Assembly: GCA_963842085.1 (NCBI GenBank)
Contig: CAWJET010000002.1
Coordinates: 768,001-832,000 of the forward strand
Length of the DNA stretch: 64,000 nucleotides
Direction: 5' to 3'
Origin: an uncultured delta proteobacterium
Lineage (GTDB): Bacteria > Desulfobacterota > Binatia > Binatales > Binataceae
Under the pieces are notes generated by a model. It searched no databases. It was not told the DNA's origin and worked only from the letters and a program-made list of their open reading frames with translations. Made by a program: the position numbers and the translations under genes. Below, in pieces: positions 28,507-50,397 of this stretch; position 1 is the first letter of the stretch, and every line of letters begins with the position of its first letter.

Positions 28507-28530
28507 GCTGCGATAGCTTTTAGCGAGCGG

Positions 28531-30796: not shown

Positions 30797-30888
30797 GCGG
30801 TCCGCTCGATTCGATTACTCGCGCCCTCGGGAGTTGGAGCCAGACCTTTCGACGAGTCCGAGTCCTGAAGCTCGGGGCTGGGCTACTG

Positions 30889-30965
30889 TGGCGCGCCCGG
30901 AGGGATTCGAACCCCCAACCCTCAGATCCGAAGTCTGATGCTCTATCCAGTTGAGCTACGGGCGC
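30889..30965 (-). tRNA. tRNA-Arg (anticodon TCG), 77 nt, CCA encoded
   Basis: GCGCCCG/CGGGCGC acceptor stem, TAGCTCAACTGGATAGAGC D arm, TCAGA-CTTCGGA-TCTGA anticodon arm, GTTCGAATC T loop. Confidence 0.96.
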
Positions 30966-31017
30966 GCGCTAGGAAACATAAGGGGTTTTCGGCGTGGAAG
31001 CCAGAGGCCGGGTGGTC

Positions 31018-31041
31018 TGACACCCGAAGTTGACACCCGAA
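31018..31041 (+). repeat. Putative integrase arm-type sites (left)
   Basis: TGACACCCGAA twice; the same TGACACCC core occurs twice at 49363-49381. Confidence 0.6.
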
Positions 31042-31180
31042 CTGGGTCGAGCTCAGGGGGTGAGCATCAAACATTTTGGGGTGGTGACGCATTCGGATCG
31101 CGACGTGTCGCGAGTGGCGCACCAACCGGTCACAGTGGGCTGTGTATACGCGCGCGACCACCCGCGGGGGGCCATTAGAA

Positions 31181-31293
31181 TAGGAAAAATCATCGTCACT
31201 CTCGTCACCATCGTCACTCGACCTTAAAATCAAGGAGTTACGGATGACGATCGCGGTGACGGTCGTTTCTTTGGCAATCGTCACCGAACCGAA
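31181..31293. repeat. Iteron-like array (TCGTCAC/GTGACG), putative replication origin
   Basis: Three direct copies, an AT-rich spacer TTAAAATCAAGGAGTTA, then inverted copies. Confidence 0.55.
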
Positions 31294-31475
31294 AGTGACG
31301 GTCGCGCCACTCGCCAGAGGTCGCACGTCGCGAACATCTGCCGGCGCGCGCGCGCCCATACGCGGCGCATGGCGTTGCCCTATTACGTGTTCCCCGTCAG
31401 CACAAGTTGGACAATTCGAGGCGATTGAGGAAGAGAGGGTTTTTGGCTCATCTTTAACCGCGGAAGGAGCGGTAG

Positions 31476-31850
31476 ATGAGATCGAAAATCGATGCGCAGT
31501 CGGATGGGGCGGAAAAGGCGGTACGCGACATAAGGCGGGCGACCCGCCGGCACTTCTCGGCTGAGGACAAGGTCCGGATCGTGATCGCCGGCCTGCGCGG
31601 CGAGGATAGCGTGGCCGAGTTGTGCCGCAAGGAAGGGATCAACCAGAACCTCTACTATCGCTGGTCCAAGGACTTCCTGGAGGCGGGCAAGAGGCGGCTG
31701 GCCGGCGATACCGCGCGTGAAGCGACCAGCGATGAAGTCAAGGAGCTGCGGGCGGAGAGCCATCAGCTCAAGGAACTGCTGGCCGAACTGATGATGGAGA
31801 ACCGCCTGCTCAAAAAAAGCGTGCTGGCGGATGGGGAGTCCGATATATGA
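31476..31850 (+). CDS. IS transposase OrfA (HTH); A7G frameshift signal at 31812-31819
   Basis: RRHFSAEDK.RIV, ELCRKEGI...YYRW; AAAAAAAG. Confidence 0.9.
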   Translation: MRSKIDAQSDGAEKAVRDIRRATRRHFSAEDKVRIVIAGLRGEDSVAELCRKEGINQNLYYRWSKDFLEAGKRRLAGDTAREATSDEVKELRAESHQLKELLAELMMENRLLKKSVLADGESDI

Positions 31851-32860
31851 GGTACGCGGCCGCCGAGAAGCTGGAGATCATCCGGCTGGTCGAGCAGTCG
31901 TCGCTGCCGGTGCGGCGCACCCTGGAGCAGATCGGCATCCCACGGTCCACCTTCTATTGCTGGTACGATCGCTATCGAACTCGCGATGATGAAGGGCTGG
32001 AGGATCGCACGCCGGCGCCGCGGCGGGTGTGGAACAAGCTCCCAGCTGCAGTTACTCAGGCCGTGCTCGAGCTTGCGCTCAAAGAACCGCAGCTATCGCC
32101 GCGGGAGTTGGCGGTCTCGTTCGTCGACCAGCAGCAGTACTTCGTCTCGGAAGCCTCAGTTTATCGGCTGCTGAAGGCGCACGACCTGATCACCAGCCCG
32201 GCCTTCATCTTGATGAAGGCAGCCGACAGCTTCGCCCATCCAACCACCGCACCCAATCAACTCTGGCAGACCGACTTTACCTACCTGCGGGTGATCGGCT
32301 GGGGCTGGTTCTATCTGTCGACTGTCCTTGATGACTTCTCGCGCTATATCCTGGCCTGGAAGCTGTGTACCACCATGACTGCCACCGATGTCTCCGACAC
32401 CCTCGCGATGGCGCTGCGCAACTCCGGGTTGGAGCGCGTCCGCGTCCGGCACCGGCCGCGCCTGCTGAGCGACAACGGACCGTCGTACGTGTCGGCCCAG
32501 CTTGGCTCCTGGCTCGCGGAGCATGGCATGATGCATACCCGCGGCAAGCCCTATCACCCGATGACCCAGGGTAAGATCGAACGTTACCATCGTTCGATGA
32601 AGAACCAGATCCTGCTCGAGAACTACTACCTGCCCGGTCAGCTCGAAGCGCGCCTGGCCGAGTTCGTCGACTACTACAACTCGCGCCGCTACCACGAAAG
32701 TCTCAACAACCTGACCCCGGCCGACGTCTACTTCGGCCGAGGTCCCGCGATTCTGTCACGGAGGAAAAATGCCAAACTGAAAACCATCGAAGCCAGACGC
32801 CGGCTGCATCATTCGTTCGCAGCCAAAGGTTCAACTCAGATGGACCAGATCCTCTCTTAA
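31847..32860 (+). CDS. IS transposase OrfB (DDE integrase core)
   Basis: WQTDFTY, DDFSR, SDNG, GKIER. Confidence 0.93.
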   Translation: MRYAAAEKLEIIRLVEQSSLPVRRTLEQIGIPRSTFYCWYDRYRTRDDEGLEDRTPAPRRVWNKLPAAVTQAVLELALKEPQLSPRELAVSFVDQQQYFVSEASVYRLLKAHDLITSPAFILMKAADSFAHPTTAPNQLWQTDFTYLRVIGWGWFYLSTVLDDFSRYILAWKLCTTMTATDVSDTLAMALRNSGLERVRVRHRPRLLSDNGPSYVSAQLGSWLAEHGMMHTRGKPYHPMTQGKIERYHRSMKNQILLENYYLPGQLEARLAEFVDYYNSRRYHESLNNLTPADVYFGRGPAILSRRKNAKLKTIEARRRLHHSFAAKGSTQMDQILS

Positions 32861-33308
32861 TTCCTGTGCCAACTTGTCCAATAGGTTCTGACGACGTACA
32901 GGCCATATTCCGGCCATATTCCTATGTATTTCGACGAATCCACCGCGCGTTAGCGGACATTAACGTTCCCTTCTAGTCAGCCGACGGAAGAGGCTTAGCG
33001 TGAGATTTCTTGGCAACAAGGGCGTCTCCTACGAAGAGCGCGGTGTCGTGAAATGGCGGTGCGAAGGTTGCGGTTCTCGGTTCGATCTTTTAACCGACCG
33101 ATGAGAATACCGCCCAACGAGATTCCGGAATGCCCCGACATCTGCTGGAGGAAACTCGCTGAGGACTAGGGCGTCGCGCCCGACTGGTGAAAACCGGAAA
33201 CGCAGAGGACTCCGGCGGGGGCTCAGATCAACCGCCAGAGACCTTTGATTCCCTTGTGTGTCGCAGCAGTCCGGCTCGCGCGCTTAGAAGAATTCGCCTG
33301 GGAATCGC

Positions 33309-33812
33309 TCAGCCCAAATCTGACGGGCTGTAAACGGTGAGTTCCGGAATGATGTCAAAATCAGCGTCGCGAGTAGCGAGCGATCGGATGTCACGCTCAA
33401 AGCATGCCGCTGCAATGAGCGAGTCGTTCGTCAGAAGACCGTGTTCGGATCTGATTCGCTGCGCAGCACGATGGCGCGCCTCGTTGGAGGCGAGGACGAC
33501 CAAGTTCCACTGGAAGATCCGAGCCGTCAGTTCCCAATACTTGCGCAATCCTCGAATGGCGTCGTGCTTCGATTTCAGCGCAGATGCTGCCGGTCTGCTG
33601 ATCAGGCCCAGGTCCATAGCTTCTTTGACCATCAGCCGATGACAGACCTCGCCGACCACCTCGGTCGTCGTCACACCTGCGACCTCTTCCTTCCGGCAAC
33701 GCTCTATCAGGTCCGCGCACTGGCCCGACTCCCCCAATAGACCGTAGATGAAGATGTTAGCATCAACGAAAACGAGGGTCCCGCCGGGCAGTGCGGGCAG
33801 CGGGCGAGGCAT
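33309..33812 (-). CDS. PIN-domain (VapC-like) toxin
   Basis: FVDANIF, E, ND, T.D.DF. Confidence 0.88.
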   Translation of the reverse strand: MPRPLPALPGGTLVFVDANIFIYGLLGESGQCADLIERCRKEEVAGVTTTEVVGEVCHRLMVKEAMDLGLISRPAASALKSKHDAIRGLRKYWELTARIFQWNLVVLASNEARHRAAQRIRSEHGLLTNDSLIAAACFERDIRSLATRDADFDIIPELTVYSPSDLG

Positions 33813-34082
33813 CTAAAGATATTCGAGGTCCGGATCTTCTGCGATCCACTTGAGGGTCTCGGGGTCGAGCTTCTTAAAAGTCGAAGCAATCTCGATCGCT
33901 TCCTTCCAGGCCTGCTCGGCGCGCGCGATACGCTGAGCACGGCCCTTGGCGGGCCAATGCTTGCGAATGAACGCCGCTACCTTTGGGCTCGTCTCCTTCA
34001 TCGATGAATCGGAGACCTTCGCCACCCGATTCGCGGACTTGGCCCCTGGAGAAGATGAGCGTTTTGCACGCGCTCCACTCAT
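33813..34082 (-). CDS. Putative antitoxin upstream of the PIN toxin
   Basis: Stop codon abuts the toxin ATG; acidic C-terminus WIAEDPDLEY. Confidence 0.6.
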   Translation of the reverse strand: MSGARAKRSSSPGAKSANRVAKVSDSSMKETSPKVAAFIRKHWPAKGRAQRIARAEQAWKEAIEIASTFKKLDPETLKWIAEDPDLEYL

Positions 34083-34363
34083 GTTTACCAATCTACCACT
34101 CAACCGCGGCGAGAGCGACGACCGCGAGCGGGCCCTTGTACCGACGGAGCTCGCCCGAAAACACAGCACGGCGCCGAACTTGAACAGTTCCCCGCCTTCG
34201 AGCGGATGACCTCAGCACATTCCTCAACACCCGATTTGCCAACACGACTCGAAACAACGCCCAAACTCGCGGATTTCATGCGCTAACAAATGCGCATTTG
34301 CGCCTACGCCTCGCTTCGCCTACTCTGTAGACTTCCCGAATGGTGAGGGAATTGGGGTAAGGG

Positions 34364-36975
34364 GTGGGAGCAGCAGTCGCTTCAAACAGAGGTTCGGACC
34401 GTACACTTCCTCAACCGGGCGACATCGTGAGGGTCCGCACCCGACGATACCTCGTGGAATCGGTCGAGCCAGGCTCGGATCCGATCGTCGCCTCCGTCTG
34501 TTTGGACGACGACGCTCAAGGCGACCCGCTCGAAGTCGTATGGAACCTCGAGCTCGACACCGAAATTCTGGGCAAAGACGTATGGAAGTCGATCGGTCGA
34601 AAGGGATTCGACAGCAGGCGCTATTTCGCCGCGTACGTTCACACGCTTCGATGGAACTGCGTCACGGCAACCGACCCTCGACTCTTTCAAGCGCCTTTCC
34701 GAGCCGGCATTCGCCTCGACGCCTATCAGTTGGAGCCTTTGCGCAAGTCACTGCTGCTCCCGCGCGTTAATATTTTTATCGCCGACGACGTTGGCCTAGG
34801 AAAAACCATCGAAGCCGGACTTATTGCCAGCGAACTTCTTCTGCGCCGGCGCGTTCGAGAAATCGTGGTTGCATGTCCGCCCACGATGCTGCCGCAGTGG
34901 AAGGACGAGATGGAAGCACGATTCGGCCTCACCTTCCAAATCCTCGATCGCAACTACATTGACCAAGTCCGCCAGCAGTACGGTTTTGCTGTCAATCGGT
35001 GGACGACCTTCCCTCGTTTTCTTGTTTCGCACAATCTGCTCATTGACGAAGCATACGCAGGGCCGCTCTGCGCATGGCTCGAAAACTTTCGAGCGGGCAC
35101 CTTGTTGATTCTGGACGAGGCGCATCATGCCGCTCCATCCAGCGGCGCCCGTTACGCGATCGACTCACGAATCACCCGCGCGATACGAGATATCGCGCCA
35201 CGTTTTGAACATCGGCTGTTTCTCTCTGCGACTCCTCACAACGGTCACTCGAACAGCTTCAGCGCATTGCTCGAAATCCTTGATTCTTATCGCTTCACGC
35301 GAGGTGTCCCGATTCTCAAGGGTCAGCTTGACCAGATGATGGTGCGGCGGCTCAAAGAAGACATTCGTCGTCTCGAGGGCGGATTTCCCGAGAGAATCGT
35401 CAAACAGGTCGGTATCGACGGACTGCCTACCGATGCACCCGAACTGCGACTCGCCAAGCTCCTGAGCGATTATGCGGATGTTCGAAGCGTCCGCACCGCG
35501 GGCGCAACCAGGAAGAAACAGGCCGAGGCGAAGCTGCTGATATCGGGACTTCAACAACGCCTGCTCTCATCGATTGAGGCCTTCGCGAAGACTCTGAAGG
35601 TTCATCGCCGCACCATCGAGAAACTCCGGGCAGCGGAGAGCCCCACCAAAACCCAGTCTGAGATCGACCCGCAGCTCATCCTCGGCAACTTTGATTCCGA
35701 CGATGAGCGCAGTCAGTTGCCCGAAGAGGAGCAAGAGAAGCTTCAGGACGCTGCCGTCGAGGCCGCCACCGAAAATACACGCGGAGATTCCGCGAAGGCT
35801 GACCTGCGAACCGAGCAGCAATTGCTCAACGAAATGGAGCAGGTCGCCGAAGCAGCCCGCGGTTTGCCAGATGCCAGAGTCCTCAAATTGATCGAATGGA
35901 TTAAATCCAACATGTGCGCCGGTGTGAGAGTGCCTGGGCAGCCGTCTCTGCAACCCAACGCCCCTTGGTCGGACTCGCGATTGCTCATATTTACGGAATA
36001 CGAAGACACACGGCGCTACATCGTCGCGATGCTTCGGGCGGCCGTGTCGGAAACACAGAATGCCGAAGAGCGCGTGAAGGTTTTTTCCGGCACCACAGCT
36101 GCGAGGGATCGCGAAGCGATCAAGCTCGCCTTTAATTCATCGCCCTCTGAGAATCCATTGCGGATTCTCGTTGCAACCGATGCCGCGCGCGAAGGCATCA
36201 ATCTTCAGGCTCACTGGTCGAACTTGTTTCACTTCGATCTGCCGTGGAATCCAAGCCGTATCGAGCAACGCAACGGACGTATCGATCGTAAGCTTCAACC
36301 CGCGGAGAAGGTCTTCTGCCACTACTTCTTCTACAAACAACGCGATGAAGATCGAATCTTAAAAGCCCTTTGGTCAGGAAGACGGACACCATACGTCGGG
36401 AGCTCGGTAGTCTCGCCGAGGTGCTCGAAGAACGGCTGCACCAAGCGGTCAAATTTTGAATTTCAAGGCGCGAGATCGACCAGAAAGTGCGCGATATTGA
36501 AAATGCCGGTCTCGAACCCGAGAAACGCGTGACGGCGGACGAAGAACTCGAATCGGCAAGGACACGACAGGACGCACTACTGGGCGAAATCGAAAGGCTC
36601 CAGGACCGACTCGAAAAAGCTAAAGAGTGGATCGCGCTGGACAACGATGCTCTCCGCGATGCGATATCGTGCTCGCTGGAGATGCTGAATGCCGAGCCTT
36701 TGAAACCGGCCGAGGCCAAGGGACAGGCCCGATTCGAGTTTCCGAATCTTGAAGCCAGGCATGGTGCAGACCCCACTTGGTCGACCACGCTCGACAATCT
36801 TCGCAAGCCCCCCAAAGATGGAAAGCGCGACTTCGAGTGGCGCAAGAACTCACCGATCCGGCCAGTAGTTTTCAACGCGCCACTCGGCATTGACGACGAT
36901 GTCGTTCAGCTTCATCTCCAACATCGAGTCGTTCAACGCCTTCTGGGCAGATTTCTCTCGCAAGGATTCGTAATC
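34364..36975 (+). pseudogene. drmD: DISARM SNF2-like helicase DrmD; frameshift near 36370, in-frame TGA at 36457, 3'-truncated
   Basis: LRWNCVTATDP.LFQAPFRAGI, ADDVGLGKTIEAG, DEAHH, SATPHNG, ATDAAREG, PWNP.R.EQRNGRIDR; continues VRKTDTIRRELGSL in another frame. Confidence 0.85.
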
Positions 36976-36991
36976 GACGCGGAAATCGAAG

Positions 36992-37070
36992 AAATTCCCT
37001 GTATTTTTCCTGATGATCAGGGAATTTGACGCTGGAGAGCAGTTCGCATCAGACTGCGTCATCCCGCAGC
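36992..37070. other. Inverted repeat plus tRNA-3'-end-like hairpin; possible end of another mobile element that truncates drmD
   Basis: AAATTCCCTG-N16-CAGGGAATTT, then GCAGTTCGCATCAGACTGC. Confidence 0.45.
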
Positions 37071-37233
37071 CAGTCATAACAAAACGCGTTATCTCCCGGA
37101 TCTGGTCGCGAACCGAGACGAATCAAGTTTTGAGAAACGGCAAGCGTTCGCGCGGGTCTAGACCCGCGCAGCGTGCGCAAACACCCGCCATCTGTTATGG
37201 TCTGCGACGAACTTGTTCCGGAGGTAAACAGCT

Positions 37234-37527
37234 ATGGCAACATTCATGGTTCTGGCCCGCTACACGCATCAGGGTGTCGAGCACGTGAAGGCCTCGCCCG
37301 AACGACTCGAGGCGGTCAAGAAGGCTTTCCACACCAAGGGCGCGGAGGTGAAGGCCTTCTATACCTTGATGGGTGAGTACGATTCCCTCCTGATTGTGGA
37401 GGCCCCGTCGGACGAGATCATGGCGCAACTTGCGCTCGGAGTGGAAAGCAAAGGCAACGTGCGCACCGAGACCCATCGCGCCTTCAGCGAAGCCGAGTTC
37501 CGCAAGATCGTAGCGGGAATGTCTTAG
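37234..37527 (+). CDS. GYD-domain protein
   Basis: YT.QG, Y..MGEYD....EAP, GNVRTET..AF. Confidence 0.9.
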   Translation: MATFMVLARYTHQGVEHVKASPERLEAVKKAFHTKGAEVKAFYTLMGEYDSLLIVEAPSDEIMAQLALGVESKGNVRTETHRAFSEAEFRKIVAGMS

Positions 37528-38086
37528 GCCCTGCCACACAGGCGATGGCGCAGCGCCGCGGCCAGTTCTCATCTTGTCGGTGAGTTCTCGACGAGAGTCG
37601 CCATGTTCTCCACGCTGGCTTTGGTTGCGGTGGGGGGCGCAATCGTGGAGAATGCTCAACTTTTGCTGGAACACCTGCTGCGCTTTCTAACTCAGGACAC
37701 TAGCGCGGGCGGATAGTCCAGCCGCGGCCCGAGCAGATCACCTCGCCCGCCTGGTTGTAAAAGACGTTGTCATGGACCACGAACAGGCGTTCCCACTGTC
37801 CGCCATTTGTCGGTCGCGCGCCCGTCTGCTAAATCGTTCTCGATATGAACCCCCGCCACGCCGCCGCGCTCGCGCTTGTGGGCTGATAAAAGAAAGGCAC
37901 GCGGGGGCTTCACCATGAGGGCATGTGGCCGAGCGTGCCATCGGCTACCCCTGGGGGGGAGTGCGAAGCCGACCATCTTCATTTAGTAGCCGCACGCAAT
38001 TATCGCTACCCACGGCGCGTTCCGAGCGGAACGATTCCGAACTTTCGCATCACGCTTATCCACAGCAAAGGAAGTTAAGCCACCCC

Positions 38087-39300
38087 TGTGCTCCGCAATA
38101 ATGATCGGTACTCAGGCAGCACGAGCGACGACACTGTACTCGTGGTGAATTCCGTTTAGGACTGGGCGAGCGACAATTGAAACTGGCCGGTCGAAATGGT
38201 GTCGGTGGCGTTGCAGGAGCGGGAAGGCTGCATGTGGACCGGGAACACCCGGTCCCAAGGAGGAATGTGGTCTGCCTTGGTTGTAGTGGGCCATCCAAGA
38301 CACCAGAGTTTTCCTCAAATGCCCTTCGCTCAGCGGAATGATCCAATCGAGGCACTCCCGCCGCAGAGTCCCGATCAGCCGTTCACAAAGCGAGTTCGCC
38401 CGCGGACTATGCACCGGCGTGGTGATCACCTTGAGGCCTAGGTGCGTCAGCGAAGCATTCAATTCGGCCGAAAAGATCCTGTCGTGGTCATGAATGATGA
38501 AGCGATACTCGTGGTCGGACGGGATAGCTTCTCGCAATTGCTGAAGCGTCCAGGCGGCGGTGGGATGAGCGGTGGCATTTAAGTGAATCAATCGACGCGA
38601 GGCATGCTCCATAGCCACAAATACGTAGAGGATTCGAAAGGTGGCGGTCACCGCGACGCAGAAGTCACACGCGATGATTCCCCGAGCGTGATTCCTTAGA
38701 AAAGTCGCCCACCGCTGGTCGCCACGCGGTCCTCCGGGCGGCGCCGCCGGCAACTTCTGCACGTACTTTCTGATTGTCCGCGGCGACACGCGCAGACCGA
38801 GCTTGAGCAGCAGTTCGTTTGCGATGCGCTCCTCGCCCCACGAGGGGTTCTCGCGCGCCATTTTGCGAATCAGATGTTGAAGTTCGAGAGGGGTTGGCCG
38901 TCGGCCAGCTTCGGACTGCCAGCGCCAGAAGAGGCGGAAGCCCTTGCGGTGCCAGGCAACCAAGGTCTTGGGCCTCACGACGACCAACGCGTTGCGCCAA
39001 TCGAACCAGCGGCTGAGCAGCACGAGCGTCAGGCGGGTCGGATTGTCGGCACGTCGGGGCTTGACCTTGCGCTCTTGATAAAAGGCGAGCTGCTTGCGCA
39101 GGAACAGATTCTCGGCCGCTAGCGAGGTTCTGGAGCGCAAGCCGAGACACAGAAAGTGAACTAGATCATACACGACCCTTAGCCAACTCAGCCCTGCGCC
39201 CACCATGCAACCGGCCCTCTTTCGTCAACGGATGTCTCCGTAAAATCCCTAAGAACTATGCGCGTTTCAAACCAGAGCGAAATGATTTTTGCGGACCACA
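38087..39300 (-). mobile_element. IS481-like element (TGT...ACA)
   Basis: IRs TGTGCTCCGCAATAATGAT and TGTGGTCCGCAAAAATCAT (16/19); no target duplication. Confidence 0.75.
38112..39206 (-). CDS. Integrase-core-domain transposase
   Basis: ENL.LR.QL, ENP.WG, ACDF, HD.D..F, ER.IGTLRRECLD, YN..RPH. Confidence 0.9.
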   Translation of the reverse strand: MVGAGLSWLRVVYDLVHFLCLGLRSRTSLAAENLFLRKQLAFYQERKVKPRRADNPTRLTLVLLSRWFDWRNALVVVRPKTLVAWHRKGFRLFWRWQSEAGRRPTPLELQHLIRKMARENPSWGEERIANELLLKLGLRVSPRTIRKYVQKLPAAPPGGPRGDQRWATFLRNHARGIIACDFCVAVTATFRILYVFVAMEHASRRLIHLNATAHPTAAWTLQQLREAIPSDHEYRFIIHDHDRIFSAELNASLTHLGLKVITTPVHSPRANSLCERLIGTLRRECLDWIIPLSEGHLRKTLVSWMAHYNQGRPHSSLGPGVPGPHAAFPLLQRHRHHFDRPVSIVARPVLNGIHHEYSVVARAA

Positions 39301-39764
39301 AGATCCCAATCCCGAATAGATCTGACAAGTTACCACCGTTCAGTTGCTCAGCGTTGGCGATAACGACGCGTTCTTCCCGACTAACGCTAAATCTCACGCG
39401 ACCGGCTTCGGTCTCAGGAAATCTGCCCGCAGCTAAAGTGTCCGTCTCGATCGGAGCGTGAGCAACTCGACTTTACGATCACCAAAAAACCAGCGCTGCC
39501 GCCCCATATGCCGCGACGCCGGTTCGAAGACTGTGCGCCAGCGGTGCCGCAGTTGTTGCAACGACCGTCAGCCGGTCGGCTCCACGACGTAATTCCATGG
39601 GCTACTGATGGCCAATTAGACGCGACCCGCATGCTTGGCAGTTCGTGATTTCGCCGACCTCGTCACCAACGACGCCGGCACACGCGGTGAAATCCAACGC
39701 TGCGCGCGAAGACGAGCCGCAGCGATTCTGAGTGGCGGATGGGCGCACATCATGATAAGCCGTC

Positions 39765-40595: not shown

Positions 40596-40768
40596 TCCAA
40601 CCGCCACCTCCACATGATCGCGTCTAAATCGAAGGCACGCCGTACCACGGTTGAATCGGGTGCGTCGTCACTCAAGCCCGCCTCTTCCGCAGTGAACACT
40701 CGTTTTCGCGGGAAGCAGTCTTTGGCTTTTTGCACGTCCCAGTCCAGAAGGAATTTGTAGCCCTGCAT
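40592..40768 (-). pseudogene. Possible truncated DUF5615/PIN-like toxin fragment (58 aa)
   Basis: MQGYKFLLDWDV...TAEEAGLSDDAPD..V...A resembles the DUF5615 N-terminus. Confidence 0.35.
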
Positions 40769-40871
40769 CTCAGGTTCGCTTCAGAGTAGTCGTGTGACCT
40801 TGAGGCCGTTGCTGAGCATCCAGACCTGCTCGATCCTGTCCGGCCTCGCTAATTGAGCAAGCGCTTGCTCG

Positions 40872-41378
40872 ATGACCCGAACTCCGTGGGCGGATGCGAT
40901 GGCCGGCGATCTCAAGGGCGGCATCGCCCGGATGCGAGAGGGAGGAATGATGGCTTTTGGGGTAAAGGAGGATCAGGTCTCATCACCCCCGATTGCCGCC
41001 GTCCTCGGCCTGATGGGACGGTTCGAGGAGGGTCTTCGCATCATCGACAAGTCATCCTCGACCATCGAGCGGACCGGCCAGCGAATACATGAGGCGGAGG
41101 TATATCGCGTGAAGGGCGAACTGCTGCTGATGCAGGACGCCTCGAATGCCGCGCCCGCCGAGCAATGCTTCCGCACCGCGATCGAGGTTTCGCTACGCCA
41201 GAAGGCGAAGTCATGGGAGCTGCGCGCGGCGACGAGTCTGGCGCGCCTGCTAGACCAGCAAGGCAAGCGCGACGAAGCCCGCGCGATGCTCGCTGGCATC
41301 TACAACTGGTTCACCGAAGGCTTCGACACCGCCGACTTGAAGGACGCCAAGGCCCTGCTCGATGAGTTGAACGACTAA
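40872..41378 (+). pseudogene. C-terminal TPR fragment of an adenylate cyclase/ATPase-type protein
   Basis: EAE.YR.KGELL, AKSWELRAA.SLARL, WFTEGFDT.DL..AK; N-terminal domains missing. Confidence 0.8.
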
Positions 41379-41499
41379 ATGTCTTGTGCGCACTGTCGGC
41401 GCGGCCCAGCCGTAGGTTGCATTAGCTCGGACTGTTGGTAGTTTGAGCGGGTAGTAAATGTCGGGCGGCGAAACGCGAGCCGCCCGCTTCTGATCTGTA

Positions 41500-44341
41500 A
41501 TGACTCAGGCCGGCACGGCAACCCTGCTGTTCACCGATCTGGTGAACTCGACCGAGCTTCTCAGCCGGGCCGGCGACGAGCGCGCCCAGCAGATTTTCAG
41601 GGCCCATCACAAGCTGCTGAGCGATGCGGTCGTGGCGCACGGTGGCCACGAGGTCAAGTGGCTCGGCGACGGATTGATGGTTGCGTTCCCATCGGCGGCC
41701 GACGCGGTGCGCTGCGCGATCGCGATGCAACAGAGCGGACGGCGTCCCTTGGCGGGAGCGCGCTTGGGCTTGCGCGCCGGACTGCACGTCGGAGAAGCGC
41801 TGCGCGATGAAGCCGACTACTTCGGGACTGCGGTAGTAGTGGCGCGGCGGCTGTGTGAGCGCGCCGCCGCGGGCCAAATCATCGCGAGCTCGCTGGTGTC
41901 GGGGCTGCTTGCAGGACGTGAGAACTTCAGCTTCCGCGACCTAGGCGCCCTTGAGTTGAAAGGATTCGCGGTACCTGTCCCTGCGTGCGAGGTGCTCTAC
42001 GAGCACGACGAGCCAACCGCGATCCTGCGCCAGATGCCGTTCGTCGGACGCGCGGGCCAGATGGCCCGGCTGGAACACAAGCTTGCAGATGTACGCGCCG
42101 GACGCGGCGGTCTGGTGATGGTCGTTGGCGAGCCGGGTATCGGCAAGACCCGCACGCTCGAGGAATTCGCCGCAAACTCCCGCGCACACGGCGCGCTGGT
42201 GCTGTGGGGGCGCTGTTACGAGGGCGAATGGGCGCCGCCTTACCGCCCCTTTGCGGAGGCGATAACTGAGTACGCGCGCGCCGCCGACACGGAACATCTG
42301 CGCCGTGAGCTCGCTTATGGAGGACCGCCGCTGGCGCGGCTCGTTCCGATCATCCGCGAGCGCATCGCGGACCTCGGCGAACCAGCGCCGCTCCAACCAG
42401 AGGAGGAGCGCTTCCGACTACTCGACGCGGTTTCGCAACTTCTCATCGCCGTGTCCGCACGCACACCATTGGTCCTCGTGCTGGACGATTTGCATTGGGC
42501 GGATCGCGGGACGATCGCGATGCTGCGTCATGTCGCACGCTTCATCGCCCACAATCGTATTTTGGTGATTGGCGCTTACCGCGACGTCGAGCTCGACCGC
42601 CAGCATCCGCTCTCCGACGCGCTCGCCGCGCTCAGGCGCGAGGCCGAATACGAACGTATCAACCTCAAAGGGCTCGACAGTCGCGAGGTCGGAGAACTGC
42701 TCCAGACGGTCACCGACCAGGACGTGCCCGAGCCATTGGTCAAAGCGATCGACGCGGAAACGGAGGGCAACCCGTTCTTCATCCGCGAAGTGCTGTTGCA
42801 TCTGATCGAGGAAGGGAAGATCTCCCGCCAGGACGGCCGCTGGAGGTCGGACCTGGCAATCGAGGAGTTGGGCATTCCCGAGGGCGTGCGGCAGGTGATC
42901 GGACGGCGATTGTCGCGGCTCTCCGACGAGGCGAATCGCGTACTGGCGGCGGCGTCTGCATTCAACGGCGCCTTCCACTTCGGAATCGCCGCGAAAGTAG
43001 CGGGCCTTGACGAGGGCGCGGCCTTGAAGGCGGTGGACGCGGCGCTAGATGCGCAACTGATCCGCCCCGGTACCGAGGCCGACAGTTACGATTTCACCCA
43101 CGCGCTTATCCGCCACACCCTGTACGGCGAAATGAACCCATCCAGGCAGGTCCGGACCCATCGGCAGATCGCGGAGGCTATGGAGGAGTTCTGGGGCGCG
43201 CGAGTTGCTGAGCATGCGGCCGAGGTGGCCTATCAATATTCGCGCAGCGCGGCGCTTCCGGGCGCCGAGCGCGGCGCGGTTCACGCGATCGCGGCCGCGG
43301 ATCGGGCGGAGGCTGCCTATGCCCATGATGATGTCGCCGCCTTCTTCAAAATCGCGCTCGAGCTGTTGCCGCAAACGGACTCGCGGCGGCCGCGCGTGCT
43401 CGGTCGCCTCGGACTTACGCTCGCATGGATGCTGGAATCCGAGGAGGCTCTGAAGATCGCCGGCCAGGCGGGAGATCTAATCGCAGCTTCGGAAGGAAAC
43501 GCGGCAGCAGCCAACTATCTTGCGGAGGCTACGGAAGCGATGGGTCAGGCGGGGTTCTTCCGTGAAGCTGGCGCTCTGGCGGTTCAAGGGCTTCGATACA
43601 CGGGTGATCGCCGAGACAACACCTGGGCAATATTGACGGCGCGGGACCTGACACGCGAGGAGTCCGAGAGCCCTGACTACATGGGACTCCCATTGGACTC
43701 GCCTCGCCGGCGGGAGTTGTACGAGTTTGTACGCAACCGAAGAGCGGAGGCCATGCACTTTTACGGCCTTATGGCGTTCCGATCCCGCGATGAAGTTCTG
43801 GCCGGTGCCGCCGCCGATTCCATTGATTCCACCAGCCTCCCTTGGGCGCTAACCTTCGCCGCCGGCGAATACCGCCGCGCCTTGCCGCTCTGGCAAGAGC
43901 GAGCCGCTCGCAGCGAGAGGCAGGGACGAATTGCCGTGGCCGTCGAGGGCTGGGCGCAGGCCGCGCGCTGCCTCAATGCGCTCGGCGATCTCGCGGCGGC
44001 GCGGGCAGCCTACCAGAAGGAGAGAACCGCGGGCTCACGGCTGACCACCACATCTACGCAGGTTCTGCAGCTCCTAACTGCAAGAGATGAGATGTGGCTG
44101 GCGCTGGACGAGAACTGGGAGAAGGCCATCGCGCCATATGAATCGGGCGCTGAAGAGGGCGTCGAGGTCACTTGGTTCTTGGCAGCATTCCGAGCCGCCC
44201 GCGCCCGCATCTACGCGCATCTGGGAAGGGAGAAGCAAGCGCTCGACTTGTTGAACATGGTCATCGCGCCGCTCGAGCGAGCGCCGGGTTGGGCCCCGAA
44301 TTACACCCGGACCGCTTGCGACGCGGCCTCGACGCTCTGGA
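41500..44341 (+). CDS. Class III nucleotidyl cyclase + AAA (STAND) ATPase + TPR-like repeats; 3' end cut by IS3
   Basis: LFTDLV.ST, GDG, G..V..A.RL; GEPGIGKT, DDLHWAD, GNPFF; homology ends at the IS IR. Confidence 0.88.
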
Positions 44342-44455
44342 TGGAGCTGCCCCGTTTCGGTGGACGGTTTAGGGCTTGGTTTTAGTTCATTGGTTTTGTC
44401 TCGTCGAGAGTTCCGTTTTGATGTTCATCTGGTACCAGCTTTTCGGCCCCAGCCC

Positions 44456-45436
44456 TCACCGATTGGGGCTGGGGCCGGAAAGCGTTATGGAATCTTGATC
44501 CGAGAGCGCGGCGCCGTGCAGCGCGCCGGCCGCCGCGTTGTTCGGCGGCCAAGCGGTGCGCAGAGCGGTCGAGCTCCGCATGCTTTGATTCGGTTCGGCC
44601 CGATAGATTTGTTCGTACTCGAGCGGCGAACGATAGCCGAGGGCGGAGTGGCGGCGGTGCGGATTGTACCAGCCCTCGATGAAGTCGAAGATCGCCATCC
44701 TCGCCTCGACCTGGGTTTTGAAACGGTGGCGGTCGAGCAGCTCGCATTCCAGGGTGGCGAAAAAGCTTTCGCACATCGCGTTGTCGAAACAGTCGCCTAC
44801 CGAACCCATCGAGGCACGCACTCCTGCCTCACGGCAACGCATGCCGAACGCGATCGAGGTGTATTGGGTGCCCTGGTCGGAATGATGGATTACCGTGGTC
44901 GGCCGGCGCTGCCCGAGCGCCATATTGAGCGCTGCCAACACCAGCTCGGTGCGCAGATGATTCTCCATCGCCCACCCAATCACGCGGCGGCTAAACGCGT
45001 CGAGGACAACCGCCAGGTACAGAAAGCCGGCCCAGGTTGGAACATAGGTGATATCGGCGACCCACAGCTGATTGGGCGCCGCCGCGGTGAAGTTACGCTC
45101 GACCAGATCCGGCGCCGGTCGCGCGGCGCGATCGCGAACCGTGGTGGTGATCCACTTGCGCCGGCTGACTCCGTGAAGTCCCGCCGCGCGCATCAGCCGC
45201 GCCACCCGCTTACGTCCGACCGCGATGCCGTCGGCTAACAGCTCGGCATGAATGCGCGGAGCGCCATAGCTGGTGCGCGACCGTTCATGAATCGCGCGAA
45301 TGCGCGCCGTCAATTGCGCGTCGGCCCGAGCCCACGCCGACCGCGGTCGTCTTAGCCACGCCCAGTAGCCGCTGGTGGAGACCTCCAGCACCCGGCACAT
45401 CGTGGCGATTGCGTACATGGCCTGATTCGCGCTCAC
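44456..45436 (-). CDS. IS3 transposase OrfB
   Basis: YG.PRI, W.ADITY, DAFSRR, HSDQG.QY, DNA..ESFF. Confidence 0.93.
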   Translation of the reverse strand: MSANQAMYAIATMCRVLEVSTSGYWAWLRRPRSAWARADAQLTARIRAIHERSRTSYGAPRIHAELLADGIAVGRKRVARLMRAAGLHGVSRRKWITTTVRDRAARPAPDLVERNFTAAAPNQLWVADITYVPTWAGFLYLAVVLDAFSRRVIGWAMENHLRTELVLAALNMALGQRRPTTVIHHSDQGTQYTSIAFGMRCREAGVRASMGSVGDCFDNAMCESFFATLECELLDRHRFKTQVEARMAIFDFIEGWYNPHRRHSALGYRSPLEYEQIYRAEPNQSMRSSTALRTAWPPNNAAAGALHGAALSDQDSITLSGPSPNR

Positions 45437-45747
45437 GAATTGGAACGCCGTGACGGCACTGAGCCGGTCTCCGTGGCGAACCAGGCCGCGGCTTTTGATA
45501 GGATCTCACGCTCTTCGCGCAAAATCCGGTTCTCGCGCCGCAGTCGGCTCAATTCCTCGCGCTCACTTGTGGTCAGGCCATCGTTTCTCACTCCTTCATC
45601 CAGCTCTGCCTGTCTCACCCACTGCCGAATCGACTCTAACGTCGGCTCAAACTCTCGCGCCAATTCCGTCAGCGGCCGGCCTGCGCGCGCCAGTTCGACT
45701 ATCCGCCGCCGATACTCAGCCGGGTATGGTGGATGTGTCTTGGCCAT
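45433..45747 (-). CDS. IS3 transposase OrfA
   Basis: YPAEYRRRIV HTH, leucine zipper, IL.KAAAWF. Confidence 0.92.
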   Translation of the reverse strand: MAKTHPPYPAEYRRRIVELARAGRPLTELAREFEPTLESIRQWVRQAELDEGVRNDGLTTSEREELSRLRRENRILREEREILSKAAAWFATETGSVPSRRSNS

Positions 45748-45804
45748 CGTCTTTCCTCCCTCACTCTCTTCCCCAACACACTCCACGAAACCGGGTCAAC
45801 TCCA

Positions 45805-46830
45805 GAGTATCACACCCGGCCGCTTCGACAGCGGCTTCTCGGCGAGCGTCACCGCGACGGCGTTCTCCGAGATGTAGGCGAGCACGCGGCTGGTGTCCCA
45901 TCCCTCGGCCAGCGCGTCGGCGAGGTCCCAGCCCTTCGCCCACGCGGGGTTGAACCTGACGATCTCGGGGCGCAGACCGACCTCGCGGAAGTACTCCTCG
46001 AGCAGGAACATCGCCTTGCGGCCCTCGGCGTCGGCGTCCGGCCAGAGCACGAGCCGGGGCCGGTTCTCGCCGGCCCCGCGATTCAGGATCGGCCCCCAGT
46101 CGGTGAACTTCGGGCCGATGCGCCTCACGCCGCCGGCCCAGGTGACGCAAATCCAGTCGGGGAGCAGCTGGCGCGCGGCGTCGGCGGTCTTTTCTCCTTC
46201 GACGATGATTAGGGGCGCGTCGTCGCTGAGGGCCAGCAGTTCGAGGCCGTACAGCGGCCGCGGCGCCGGCAGGTCGCGCCAGCGCCACTCCGTCGCGCCG
46301 GTCTGCATGTTCTGGCAGAAGGTCAGCGGCAGCACGTCCTTCGAGCCGTCGGGACGGTCGAACCGGACGCGCCAGCACAGGGGCACGCCGTCCGCGTTCA
46401 GGTAGCACCACATCGCAGTCGGCGCGGCGTCGCCCATGCGGCTCGGGGGCAGGACCGGGAAGTCCTCGGCCGTCATCGGCGCGTAGTCGGGGATCGTGGC
46501 CATCGGGACCCACGGGTTCTGGGTGACGCCGAGCGGCCGGTTCAGGCCGAGCAGGATGCCGAGCTCCTTGCCCGCGTCCTTGTAGGAGAGCTTGTTTATC
46601 GCGGCGAACAGCGAGATCGCGTCGTTGCCGCTGACGCCGGCGCGGGCGAAGTCCGCCCAGGCGCTGGTCCTGATGTTGACCTTGAGCGAGTTGCCCGGCT
46701 CGCCCGCGACGGAGCCGGCGACGAACTCGTTGCCCTCGATCCGGCCGCCGGGAAGCCACTCCTGAAGCAGCGCGGGATAGCGCGCGAGCGCTTCGCGCCG
46801 GATGAGCTCGAACCACTCTCTAGCCGACAT
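45805..46830 (-). pseudogene. Toprim DNA primase of a phage satellite/plasmid type, truncated by IS3
   Basis: WLPGG...G.E, W.DFA, RPLY, VEGEK.ADA, WPD.D..G, KGWD.AD; no helicase domain remains. Confidence 0.85.
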
Positions 46831-46880
46831 CGTGCAACCCCTCTGTCGCCATCTGCGGCCATCTCGCTCTCAGTGAGTTA

Positions 46881-47075
46881 TCACCGCGCCGCCTCGCCGA
46901 CCTTCTTCTCAAGCGCCTCGCGCGCCATCGCTTCAAGCGCTTCCCTCGGAATCCGAATCGCGTTGCCAAACTTTCTCGACGGGACAACGCCCCGGCGCAC
47001 TAGGATGTACGCCATGCTGCGCGAAATCTGCGCCTGCTCGGCGAATTCGCGGACCCGAAGAAAAACCGTCTCCAT
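46881..47075 (-). CDS. Excisionase-family HTH protein
   Basis: FL.V.E.A....ISRS..Y.L...G..P..K.G..IRIP. Confidence 0.85.
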   Translation of the reverse strand: METVFLRVREFAEQAQISRSMAYILVRRGVVPSRKFGNAIRIPREALEAMAREALEKKVGEAAR

Positions 47076-47288
47076 GGGGAACCTCGCTTAGTTACTATTT
47101 GCGATCTTGTAGGGAGGGCTGCATACCGTCAAGCCCCTTATCGCACAAACCCGCCCTCATTCGTCGAAGTTCATCGCGAACATCCCGTTGACATAGCAGA
47201 TTTCCATTGACGTTGAAGGGGTATTGCGTCTAACGGCGGTCCAATTTACAATTAGCCGTAGTTATTTCTGCTGAAGGCCTTAATCCTT

Positions 47289-48062
47289 ATGACAAATCAG
47301 TGGCTGTCCAGTGTCTGGCGAGATGCCGTCCGGCGCTGCGGTCAGAGACCCGACGAACGGGCCGACGCCCTGCTCCGTCTGCTGCAGCGCAAAGGCTTGG
47401 ATTCGCTGAAGGGGGCCGCTCTCGACGCGGCGCTCGCCGACCTCGCCCTGATATGCGTGGTGGGCGGTCGCTACCACCTGCCCGAAGGCCTCGCTGTCCA
47501 GCCCGAGGTCACAGGGCCGCAGGTGGCCGAATTCGCCGACATGACGATGTGGCGGCTGCGCGACCTGCTCAAAAACCGACGGGTACATGTCCCGGTGTCC
47601 CAGATCACGTTAGAGATCGGCTGGAAGGAATCACAAGAGCGCCTAGGGACAATCGTTTTTTGGGCCCGCGACTTCTTGGGGACTTGCAGCCTGGGCGCAT
47701 GGCAACTGCTGGCGGACCATTTGGGCCGGATCCAGACGTGTCAACGGCCTAAGTGCGGCAACTTGTTCGTGGTCCGTAGGCGCAAGGTCTACTGCTCGCC
47801 CCAGTGCGCCGCTAGGGTTCACGTTAAGCGGTTCCTCGACAGTCTAGGACCCGAGGAGCGCGGCTTCATTCGCAGAGCGACTTATCTCCGTCAGCTGCTG
47901 AAACGCGATCGCGTGCATGCTGAGCACTACCTCGCTCGCCTGATGCGCAAGGATCAGAAGACCGCGAGCCGGCTCGCGAAGGAAGTAATTGAAGGGAAAG
48001 CACGGCGACGCTCAACCGTCGTCAAAAAGAGAGGCCACAGAGATGTCAAGATTCAAGGGTGA
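47289..48062 (+). CDS. CGNR-type zinc finger protein, putative element regulator
   Basis: RI.TC..P.C..LF......YCS..C..R; divergent from xis; overlaps the int start. Confidence 0.7.
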   Translation: MTNQWLSSVWRDAVRRCGQRPDERADALLRLLQRKGLDSLKGAALDAALADLALICVVGGRYHLPEGLAVQPEVTGPQVAEFADMTMWRLRDLLKNRRVHVPVSQITLEIGWKESQERLGTIVFWARDFLGTCSLGAWQLLADHLGRIQTCQRPKCGNLFVVRRRKVYCSPQCAARVHVKRFLDSLGPEERGFIRRATYLRQLLKRDRVHAEHYLARLMRKDQKTASRLAKEVIEGKARRRSTVVKKRGHRDVKIQG

Positions 48063-49194
48063 AGGAACAATTTTCCGGCGCCGCGACGGGCGGTGGTGTG
48101 CCCGCATTGACCTCGGTTGGGTCAACGGTAGGCGCAAGCAGAAGTTCTTCTACGCCCACAACCGCGCCGCCGCTGCCGACCTGCTCGTCGAGGCGTTGCA
48201 CAAGCGCAAACAGGGCGAGACGATTCCGACCAATCGCACCACACTCGGCCGATTTATGCAGGGCTGGCTCGAAACGGTCAAAGCAACGCGCAGGCCGCGC
48301 ACCCATCAGCAATATGAGATGCTCAACCGGCTGCACGTCGAGCCAGCTCTCGGGCAAATGCAACTAACGCGGCTGGACGCGCAAGCGGTGCAAGCATTGC
48401 TTGACGCGAAGGTCAAACAGGGTCTCTCCCCTGGCACGGTGCGGCACGTGCGAACCCTGCTACGGCGAGCGCTCAACGTTGCGCTAAAGCGCAAACTCGT
48501 ATCGCTCAACGTGGCCGCGCTCGCTGACGAACTGCCCCCGCGCCGAAAGCCAGAGATCAAACCCCTCACCGAAGAGCAGGTTCGAAGCCTGCTTGTCGCC
48601 GCCCGCGAGCACTATCCACGCTGGGAGGCACTATTCGCGCTCGCTGTCCGCCTCGGTTTGCGGCGCGGTGAACTGGCGGCCCTACGCTGGGACGATGTAA
48701 ATCTCGAACGTCGCGAACTCCGGGTAGCGCAGTCCCTGCAACGCGTCCCCGGCCAGCCGCTCACGAGCGCCGAGCCGAAGACGCAGGGGGCGCGGCGGGT
48801 CATCGTGATGCCGAAGGAGATTATCAAACTCTTGCGCGTCCACCGCGCACGTCAGGCGCAAGAGCGCCTGGTCGCGGGCTCGGAGTGGAACGACAGCGGC
48901 TTGATCTTCGCGAACACAATCGGCAAGCCGCAGGAACCAAGGAGGATCAACACGGTTTTCGACAACCTCAAGAAGAAGGCAGGGCTTCCGGCCTCGACGC
49001 GGGTTCACGACCTCCGACATACCGCCGGAGTGCGCCTGCTCGAACACAAAGTGGCCCTCTACGACGTAAGCCAACTGCTAGGTCATTCTTCGATCGCGAT
49101 CACCGCGGACGTCTACGCGCACTGGACACCGAAGATGCAACGCGACCTCGCCGACCGCATCGACACCATAGCCAACGCCGAGCTGCATCCGTAG
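48043..49194 (+). CDS. Tyrosine recombinase / integrase
   Basis: GEGTI.RR.DGRW arm-binding N-terminus; GLRRGE, PKT, HDLRH, LGH and Y catalytic residues intact. Confidence 0.96.
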   Translation: MSRFKGEGTIFRRRDGRWCARIDLGWVNGRRKQKFFYAHNRAAAADLLVEALHKRKQGETIPTNRTTLGRFMQGWLETVKATRRPRTHQQYEMLNRLHVEPALGQMQLTRLDAQAVQALLDAKVKQGLSPGTVRHVRTLLRRALNVALKRKLVSLNVAALADELPPRRKPEIKPLTEEQVRSLLVAAREHYPRWEALFALAVRLGLRRGELAALRWDDVNLERRELRVAQSLQRVPGQPLTSAEPKTQGARRVIVMPKEIIKLLRVHRARQAQERLVAGSEWNDSGLIFANTIGKPQEPRRINTVFDNLKKKAGLPASTRVHDLRHTAGVRLLEHKVALYDVSQLLGHSSIAITADVYAHWTPKMQRDLADRIDTIANAELHP

Positions 49195-49283
49195 CCCGTT
49201 GGAGCTCCTGTCGAACGCTCGGCTGCGCAAGTTTCGCGACAACCCGCGCAAGTCGCGCAACGCCGCAATTCGCGGCCGCAAAC

Positions 49284-49328
49284 GGTGACGGTGACGATCA
49301 GGTGACGATGGTGACGATGATTTCCCTA
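49284..49328. repeat. Second iteron-like array, inverted relative to 31181-31217
   Basis: GGTGACG four times, then ATGATTTCCCTA. Confidence 0.6.
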
Positions 49329-49362
49329 CTCTCGGACCCTGAGGAAAAGAGAAATACACTGC

Positions 49363-49381
49363 TGACACCCATTTGACACCC
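49363..49381 (+). repeat. Putative integrase arm-type sites (right)
   Basis: TGACACCC twice. Confidence 0.55.
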
Positions 49382-49507
49382 CAAGGTCGGTCAAAAATCG
49401 TTGACTACCCAACCGCAGAATACGCCATGACACGCGAGCGCGCGTAGGCGGACGGGTTTTGAAAGTGGTGACACGCGGTATGCAGCGATGGACAGGTAGG
49501 TAGCGAC

Positions 49508-49540
49508 TCCGAAGTCTGATGCTCTATCCAGTTGAGCTAC
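49508..49540 (-). repeat. att core: displaced 5' half of tRNA-Arg
   Basis: Identical to 30927-30959; identity ends exactly at the edge of the anticodon loop. Confidence 0.92.
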
Positions 49541-49559
49541 AGGCAGCATACCGCCGGTG

Positions 49560-49603
49560 GTGTAACAGTAGATTTGACACCTCGTCCAAAGATTTGTTAC
49601 ACT
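49560..49603 (+). promoter_or_regulatory. sigma70 promoter and operator of higBA
   Basis: TTGACA-N18-TACACT with an extended TG; flanking inverted repeat GTGTAACA...TGTTACAC. Confidence 0.65.
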
Positions 49604-49611
49604 GAGGTTTG

Positions 49612-49887
49612 GTGATCGCGAGTTTTAAGCACAAGGGTCTCAAGGAAATATTTGAGACCGGCAAGAGTGCAAGGGTGGATCCGCGACTCCATCAACGCTG
49701 CTCTGACCTGCTCGACGCAATAGAGGCGGCCGTGAATCAACAAGATCTTAACCTGCCCGGCTTCAATTTCCATCCGCTAAGGGGCAAGCCCGTCCGGTAC
49801 AGCATGCACGTCAATGGTCCGTGGACGATCACTTTCGAATGGAGCGCTCCGAGAGCCAGTAGAGTCGATTTAGAGCAGTATCACTAG
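49612..49887 (+). CDS. higB: HigB/RelE-family toxin
   Basis: I.SFKHKGL, PG...HPL.G, S..VNGPW.ITF, VDLEQYH. Confidence 0.92.
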   Translation: MIASFKHKGLKEIFETGKSARVDPRLHQRCSDLLDAIEAAVNQQDLNLPGFNFHPLRGKPVRYSMHVNGPWTITFEWSAPRASRVDLEQYH

Positions 49888-49925
49888 CCCGAGGAGGGCA
49901 TGAGAGGCACAAGAGGCAATTATCC

Positions 49926-50261: not shown

Positions 50262-50340
50262 TCGAACCGAAGCCCTCGAACTCGCGGCTGTAGCTCCTCA
50301 TCTACCTTGCCGTTCTTGGAGAGTTGCACCGCCGTCGTGG

Positions 50341-50395: not shown

Positions 50396-50397
50396 TT

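Follow-up and report, generated by a model that had tools for sequence, protein, structure and literature searches.

An 18.6-kb integrative island that supplies the 5' end and upstream region of a tRNA-Arg(TCG) gene in a member of the Binataceae

Here, we describe an island at a tRNA-Arg(TCG) gene of an uncultured delta proteobacterium of the Binataceae, using a 64-kb window of contig CAWJET010000002.1 (assembly GCA_963842085.1; positions 768,001 to 832,000), from whose first base all coordinates below are counted. The sole tRNA that ARAGORN calls in this window is an intact tRNA-Arg(tcg) at 30889-30965 on the minus strand. A 33-nt string of this gene (30927-30959, the attL identity block) occurs again, exactly and in direct orientation, at 49508-49540 (the attR identity block, which is the displaced 5' half of the native tRNA). 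These are the only two matches in the window at up to 3 mismatches, a count that 0 of 100 shuffles reached, and a longer comparison (30927-30963 against 49508-49544) gives identity at 36 of 37 positions. Read on the tRNA strand, the block starts at tRNA position 7 and closes with the final base of the anticodon loop (CTTCGGA), and identity ends exactly at the 3' edge of the loop, with TCAGA to the left of one copy and GCGAC to the left of the other. The island is 18.6 kb long, comprising 30960-49507 plus one copy of the block.

The tRNA gene is therefore composite: 30889-30926 is chromosomal, 30927-30959 is the identity block and 30960-30965 (positions 1-6) is derived from the element. At the island junction the 5' acceptor strand is GCGCCCG, which pairs fully with CGGGCGC, whereas the displaced copy reads CTGCCTG and would give a C1-C72 mismatch and two G-U pairs. 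On the element side, AACATA at 30975-30980 is TATGTT on the tRNA strand and ends 9 bases before position 1. The preliminary description of this region had located the repeat, its sharp stop at the anticodon loop, the paired and displaced acceptor strands and the hexamer at these same positions, and all of its coordinates hold. TATGTT is a possible -10 element for the tRNA, judging from its distance to position 1; no good -35 element lies upstream of it.

A tyrosine integrase gene lies inside the island near its distal end (47989-49194, plus strand). Its product matches PF00589 with 100.9 bits (cut-off 27.1), carries a SAM-like N-terminal domain and falls in PHROG 1 (E 1.6e-72), and RRGE, HDLRH, LGHSS and VYAH are visible in the translation, which we take to be the motifs of a tyrosine integrase. 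The gene stops 313 bp short of the distal repeat and reads toward the displaced tRNA fragment.

Both ends of the island are rich in repeats. The P' arm (30960-31386) begins with tRNA positions 1-6, followed by 4 nt (GCGC), the TATGTT hexamer on the minus strand (30975-30980), two copies of TGACACCC (31018-31038) and an array of TCGTCAC copies (31193, 31202, 31211 and 31278). The genome has no second copy of this arm as far as 31386, at which point the multi-copy end of an insertion sequence begins. The P arm (49195-49507), also unique in the genome, has a GTGACGA array (49285, 49291, 49302 and 49311) that is inverted relative to the P' array, together with two copies of TGACACCC (49363-49381), and shows no similarity to the tRNA along its length. 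Exact TGACACCC occurs 4 times in the window (31018, 31031, 49363 and 49374), each time within one of the two arms. These repeats are putative arm-type sites for the integrase and an accessory protein. There is also a 43-bp inverted similarity (84%) between the arms (31177-31217 and 49291-49332), made of TCGTCAC units with a 9-bp period and resembling iterons.

What did the locus look like before the island arrived? Among the 24 same-genus genomes that we examined, both flanks are conserved at 80-89% identity, on the left over 28400-29978 and on the right from 50379, where a TetR gene is followed by one for an HlyD-type protein; the right flank is conserved at this level in 22 of these relatives. 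This conserved right flank (50336-51060, plus strand) includes a palindrome like a TetR operator (~50380-50398) and the TetR gene itself (50398-51060; Pfam). At least 10 of these genomes (G001, G002, G004, G005, G008, G009, G013, G014, G015 and G017) have the intact tRNA no more than ~200 bp away from the TetR flank, as compared to 19.4 kb in the window, and their orthologous site is free of the island. The rebuilt tRNA of the window is identical over its full length to the tRNA of island-free relatives, G001, G008 and G014 among them. Just downstream of the tRNA, a gene for an Rce1-like CAAX protease (29990-30796) occupies the same position in 1 of the 24 relatives (G004, 80% identity), and so the 3' side of the tRNA is variable as well.

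An alignment of 11 relatives, running from tRNA position 1 to the TetR operator, allowed the native upstream region to be recognised. TTGCGC-N17-TAGACT and a leader of ~28 nt are conserved in all 11, the displaced fragments of G007 and G016 included, and this conservation points to TTGCGC-N17-TAGACT as the probable native promoter. The corresponding region of the window (30966-31100) has nothing in common with the native upstream sequence of the relatives and is unique in the genome. Hence it is the inner left end of the element that supplies tRNA positions 1-6 and the upstream region. This bears out the claim that the island lies upstream of the intact tRNA and replaces its 5' end and whole upstream region; the aligned relatives do not carry the window's upstream sequence, which would have spoken against that claim.

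Two relatives carry islands of the same kind at the same tRNA. In G007 (63 kb) and G016 (48.6 kb), the island is found between the intact tRNA and a displaced fragment of positions 1-40, which retains 100% identity to the tRNA and lies immediately next to the native promoter and TetR flank. The rebuilt tRNA and the displaced half differ at one base in the D loop in both genomes, which shows directly that the functional 5' half is derived from the element and that the crossover took place 3' of the D loop. In these islands the integrase, encoded by an open frame of 429 aa, directly precedes the rebuilt tRNA and reads the same way; its identity is 99.3% between G007 and G016 and 29% to the integrase of the window. 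When the 6-kb stretches adjoining the displaced fragments (in G007, G016 and others) were searched with tblastn, no homologue of the window integrase was found, the G007/G016 integrase being at the other end, by the tRNA.

In addition, fragments of the 5' half of tRNA-Arg(TCG) are present in 5 of the 24 relatives (G007, G010, G016, G017 and G018), and end at the anticodon loop in G010, G017 and G018. The arms beside these fragments are unlike those of the window: G018 has the G007 type (a result that rests on an unpublished genome), and G010 and G017 have two others. Copies of the 3' part of the same tRNA are present in 5 of 24 relatives (G004, G008, G009, G014 and G019). Thus, tRNA-Arg(TCG) is a hot spot used in both 5' and 3' modes, and at least 4 different attP arms and two distant integrase families use the site in the 5' mode within one genus. 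Three of the relatives with 3' fragments (G004:C7, G009:C6 and G014:C6) have conventional islands, in which the fragment, reaching from the tRNA 3' end back to ~position 27, is 1.1, 16.6 and 3.1 kb, respectively, from the intact gene.

We propose that the region is very probably a site-specific island of 18.6 kb, which arose when a tyrosine integrase recombined an attP with the chromosomal tRNA-Arg(UCG) gene in the region of its anticodon loop, the element rebuilding the 5' half of the gene and later decaying. Recombination between attP (X-O-Y-int) and attB (5'-O-3') always gives 5'-O-Y-int ... X-O-3'. An attP of the usual kind resembles the stretch of the tRNA between the crossover and its 3' end; the look-alike is on the Y arm, so that the junction on the integrase side becomes the working gene. 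Here, the P' arm (X, 30960-31386) would carry positions 31 to 1 and its own upstream sequence, with a Y arm lacking tRNA similarity, and the junction far from the integrase (P' arm, core and native 3' half) would become the working gene. The native 5' half and the native promoter would thereby be displaced by 18.6 kb, to a place beside the integrase. The topology of recombination would be that of conventional islands, with the sole difference being which arm bears the tRNA look-alike. The crossover itself presumably fell in the anticodon loop, as suggested by the boundary of the identity block and by the difference between the two halves in G007 and G016.

Integration appears to have been followed by decay, which would account for the two IS3 copies, the third transposase, the truncated primase/helicase and the broken DrmD gene within the island. 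In the displaced fragment, an 18-bp stretch and a HigBA cassette would have taken the place of positions 1-6 and of the leader, and the orphaned promoter would have degenerated. Since the displaced end has suffered this secondary damage, precise excision would no longer restore a normal gene in this genome.

The right flank holds the traces of this damage. Between attR and the HigBA cassette lies a stretch of 18 bp (49541-49558), whose tRNA strand reads ...CTGCCT where GCGCCC is expected and which has no match elsewhere in the genome. It is followed by a toxin-antitoxin cassette with its own promoter (49559-50266, plus strand), encoding HigB (49609-49887; Pfam HigB-like toxin) and HigA (49926-50261; HTH_31). 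The cassette is outside the island and occupies the expected place of the native tRNA leader; its copies with 88% (G004:C15) and 84% (G002:C24) identity are in unrelated contexts and share no flanks. A decayed remnant of the native tRNA leader and promoter (50267-50335, minus strand) then follows, as recognised by alignment with the 11 relatives and partly by manual reading, in which GAGTTCGAG and the blocks on the TetR side persist, whereas TTGCGC and TAGACT have disappeared and the spacing is different. A candidate explanation for AGGCAGCAT at 49541, that it is the native AGGCAnGCAT block moved by a deletion, was rejected; a decayed copy of that block persists near 50290. The CTGCCTG end thus belongs to a stretch that changed after, or apart from, integration, and is not the usual outcome for such elements. 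We assume that either a discrete replacement that came with the cassette or the remnant of an older element is behind the altered stretch (49541-50335).

How far does the integrase itself bear on the proposed mode of integration? Matches to it were found in 14 of 47 genomes of the genus at E<=1e-30, including the source genome, and in the other 13 all are at 47% identity or less. No relative above 47% was found in the collections searched: a scan of genome contigs gave 3 loci at 40% or less, plasmids reached 36.2% and phages 34.4% at most. The closest homologue in the genus (G056, L045; 47% identity) has, 58 bp after its stop codon, the 5' half of tRNA-Ser(GCT), positions 1-38, ending at the anticodon loop. 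The 5' habit is hence not unique to the window element within its clade. On the question raised in the preliminary description, whether homologues of the integrase also duplicate the 5' halves of tRNAs, this one homologue lies beside such a half, and 6 of 11 homologue loci in the genus are conventional. In G056 the tRNA-Ser(GCT) 5' half is on a 270-kb contig that has no intact gene, the intact gene being on C30, and there are three further copies of positions 11-39 or 11-36 of this tRNA (C32:332145-332173, C32:335759-335787 and C8:158260-158285; L045 and L063). Possible explanations for the G056 copies are a family of att sites of the 5' type and an attP carried by a large replicon.

Several observations weigh against the proposed integration and later decay. 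First, the att habit of the integrase family rests on the single G056 homologue, with no relative of the integrase above 47% identity, and the 6 conventional loci among the 11 in the genus have an intact tRNA with its 3' end facing the integrase. Second, a perfect 33-bp fragment beside a heavily altered neighbour does not fit uniform drift. Third, no attB or attP junction linking the repeat copies was found in the Logan contigs of 4 soil-metagenome runs from 2 studies over 30300-50200, in an assembly type whose contigs break at the repeat and drop rare forms. Finally, a strict scan of the tRNA strand over 30800-31300 for the sigma-70 consensus found no promoter; the scan is uninformative, as it also misses the conserved native promoter in relative G002.

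One alternative concerns the right flank. It holds that 49541-50335 is left over from an older element that also replaced the 5' half, such that CTGCCTG is the decayed remains of a tRNA mimic carried by that element and not damaged native sequence. The frequent use of the hot spot, with 5'-half and 3' fragments in 5 of the 24 relatives each, is in keeping with a tandem arrangement of this type, as are the HigBA-like modules near tRNA-Arg(TCG) in G001 and G007 and the pairing of CTGCCT with the 3' strand at 5 of 6 positions (a chance of ~0.04 by our own estimate). However, the sequence beyond 49540 lacks another integrase, another att block and any arm repeats, and the HigBA copies of G004 and G002 have no flanks in common with the window cassette. 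Another candidate trace of a tandem element, or else a third arm site, was TTGACACCT at 49574; it was rejected, since in alignment it coincides with the TTGAC that is conserved in the HigBA copies of G004 and G002, and it belongs to the promoter region of the cassette itself. We thus consider the remnant of an older element to be improbable.

In light of the tRNA being completed by the element, might the element have made itself indispensable? The preliminary description proposed an addiction lock or a recombination switch, in which tRNA-Arg(UCG) depends on the element and excision would cost the cell its CGA decoder, or toggle it, and so stabilise the element. Excision here would indeed leave the tRNA with a mismatch (C1-C72) and two G-U pairs and without the native promoter, its body joined to CTGCCTG and the HigBA cassette. 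The tRNA is also conserved: 22 of 24 relatives match it over its full length at 93% or more (the assemblies of the other two being 85% and 89% complete), and CGA accounts for ~10% of the Arg codons in 1286 long open reading frames (ORFs), a crude set. Against this, the damage is secondary and specific to this genome, as G007 and G016 retain a perfect displaced half along with the native promoter. A tRNA-Arg(ACG) edited by TadA reads CGA by the inosine wobble rule. The genome holds tRNA-Arg(ACG) and tRNA-Arg(CCG), and its TadA scores 191.5 bits against a cut-off of 150. CGA is hence readable through inosine and its decoding is formally redundant, which bears on the question of whether tRNA-Arg(TCG) is the only tRNA to decode this codon. 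In addition, the element is degraded, no excision is seen in the contig-level data, and ARAGORN still calls the post-excision gene a tRNA, a call that says little about function. Given the secondary damage, the intact sister islands, the redundancy and the state of the element, the proposal of a lock or CGA switch does not stand up well, and we regard it as very unlikely. An incidental dependence of the tRNA on the element is plausible and an evolved lock is unlikely; that excision would not restore a normal gene is an incidental consequence, not a designed lock. Two further ARAGORN calls in the source genome are odd, an ambiguous 93-nt tRNA-?(Arg|Ser)(cg) (G000:C1:685341-685433) and an over-long 91-nt tRNA-Arg(tct) (C1:808951-809041), and both may be tRNA-like att remnants or genes with introns.

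The last alternative, that the repeat is no att site and that the 18.6 kb arrived by an insertion driven by insertion sequences or by illegitimate recombination, with the 33-bp copy being a chance match or a duplicated piece, can point to three transposase genes inside the region and is hardly credible, as the repeat is an exact and direct one that stops at the anticodon loop, a tyrosine integrase and repeat-rich arms flank it, and the independent islands of G007 and G016 share the same boundary.

The genes inside the island fit the decay that we propose for the integrated element. From the left, the P' arm gives way to a first IS3-family insertion sequence (31387-32872, plus strand; orfA 31476-31850 and orfB 31847-32860; Pfam HTH_Tnp_1 and rve, 96.3 bits), whose terminal 34 bp are multi-copy in the genome and after which the metagenome contigs restart at 32873. 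A VapC-like toxin with a PIN domain (33309-33812, minus strand; Pfam PIN, 45.1 bits) has a small ORF upstream (33813-34169, minus strand) that matches no family and may, from its position alone, be a candidate antitoxin. It is followed by a SNF2 helicase like DrmD of DISARM, in two frames (34364-36532 and 36487-37029, together 34364-37029, plus strand; NCBIfam NF038317, 785.9 and 77.4 bits), which stops near profile position 810 of 1021 and is an orphan remnant. Just after the second of these frames, base 37033 of the window is absent from the contigs of all 4 metagenome runs (for example, depth 65/65 in X1) and may be an assembly indel. A third transposase (38112-39206, minus strand; Pfam rve_3 and HTH_32) has the raised and variable contig depth typical of repeats. 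The cargo further includes a TPR fragment (40872-41378, plus strand) and an adenylate/guanylate cyclase with an AAA_16 ATPase (41500-44385, plus strand), both identified with Pfam and NCBIfam.

The second IS3-family copy (44456-45786, minus strand; orfB 44456-45436 and orfA 45433-45786; Pfam) interrupts a primase/helicase gene. What is left of that gene is the truncated N-terminal third of a Toprim primase/helicase (45796-46830, minus strand), covering positions 20-303 of 759 in the NCBIfam profile PRK07078 and matching PHROG 239 (DNA primase/helicase). A joint from 44452 to 45758, which skips 1305 bp corresponding to IS3 copy 2, is found in the contigs of all 4 metagenome runs, with a short side of 23 bases. 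It seems that a form of the island without this copy coexists, and in that form the primase/helicase would be uninterrupted. Next come a 64-aa HTH_17 protein (46881-47075, minus strand; PF12728, 35.9 bits, cut-off 27), a candidate excisionase (recombination directionality factor) by inferred role, and an ORF with a CGNR zinc finger (47289-48062, plus strand; Pfam zf-CGNR, 28.5 bits) that overlaps the annotated start of the integrase. Taken together, the island is a small integrative element with a core of the replication type (an integrase, an xis-like gene and a primase), and is heavily damaged.

Our findings are also of use beyond this locus, with modest interest attaching to both modes being used at one loop within one genus, to several unrelated arms and integrases, and to the secondary loss of the native half. 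Whether the 3' or the 5' part of a tRNA is rebuilt depends only on which attP arm carries the look-alike, and this is illustrated here with empty sites and sister islands. The 5' mode would hand the host tRNA a promoter borne by the element; in this way the expression of the tRNA, besides its integrity, would become a property of a mobile element. With both modes and several integrases meeting at one anticodon loop, such a genus would be a convenient natural system for following the evolution of att arms and the effects of islands on tRNA levels. For annotation, island finders must accept 5' fragments and an integrase beside the fragment. Going further, it could be argued that unrelated elements have repeatedly evolved attP arms replacing the 5' half and promoter at the anticodon loop of tRNA-Arg(UCG), and that here, with the native half destroyed, the only tRNA-Arg with a UCG anticodon is transcribed from and completed by a decaying element that selection on the tRNA could hold in place; as a whole, we think this unlikely, though less so than the alternatives above.

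Finally, how does the island compare with known systems? Elements that integrate at dusA restore the 5' end of their target gene. The dusA-specific integrases are described as directing integration into the 5' end of a protein-coding gene (PMC4482086), and by that description the 5'-end target is the same as that of the window island, with the difference being that dusA is a protein-coding and not a tRNA gene. A second likeness is with the tRNA-dependent lysogeny of mycobacteriophages, which, according to its published description, uses a core of ~10 bp that does not rebuild the host tRNA, a complete tRNA being provided separately by the phage (Guerrero-Bustamante & Hatfull 2024, PMC10865867). 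As in that system, tRNA function after integration relies here on sequence carried by the element. By the same description, the window island departs from it in that its block measures 33 bp, its junction rebuilds the tRNA and the window contains no further tRNA.

A closer comparison is with conventional islands and prophages of the anticodon-loop class (class A) that duplicate the 3' part of the tRNA. The enzyme family and the topology are the same, the sublocation of the target is probably so, and in 6 of 11 homologue loci in the genus the integrase reads toward tRNA sequence, as it does here. Unlike in those islands, the look-alike is on the opposite attP arm here, with the result that the integrase is beside the fragment and the element must supply the leader and promoter. 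Integration upstream of a tRNA-Arg gene is also reported for the arg2A-VII islands of Klebsiella pneumoniae, with clade I.d integrases, which integrate upstream of arg2 in a manner unlike all other islands of that survey (bioRxiv 10.1101/2020.11.02.365908). Compared by description only, these islands are assigned by their authors to a D-loop sublocation, whereas the block ends at the anticodon loop here, and the host lineage and the integrase differ.

The closest match is to islands in the Islander collection, which as reported comprises 3919 islands, 3760 of them with a fragment from the 3' end and 159 with one from the 5' end, and whose configuration filter explicitly permits 5' fragments upstream of the tRNA gene (tDNA) (Hudson, Lau & Williams 2015, PMC4383910). 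As far as the Islander paper describes its 5'-fragment islands, the arrangement is the same here: the island, which contains a tyrosine integrase, is delimited by an intact tDNA and, upstream of it, a cognate 5' fragment of the same orientation, with the boundary centred on the anticodon. In the terms of that paper, the window has a tDNA and a fragment with the integrase inside, the fragment is 18.6 kb upstream and thus within the range of 2-200 kb, and the island is absent in relatives. Against its description, nothing here is different in kind, the particulars being that the integrase has no relative above 47% identity in the collections searched and that the fragment of the window is secondarily damaged and lacks positions 1-6, where Islander allows damaged ends only at 3' ends. 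The 5'-replacing arrangement is thus an already catalogued minority class, not an exception.

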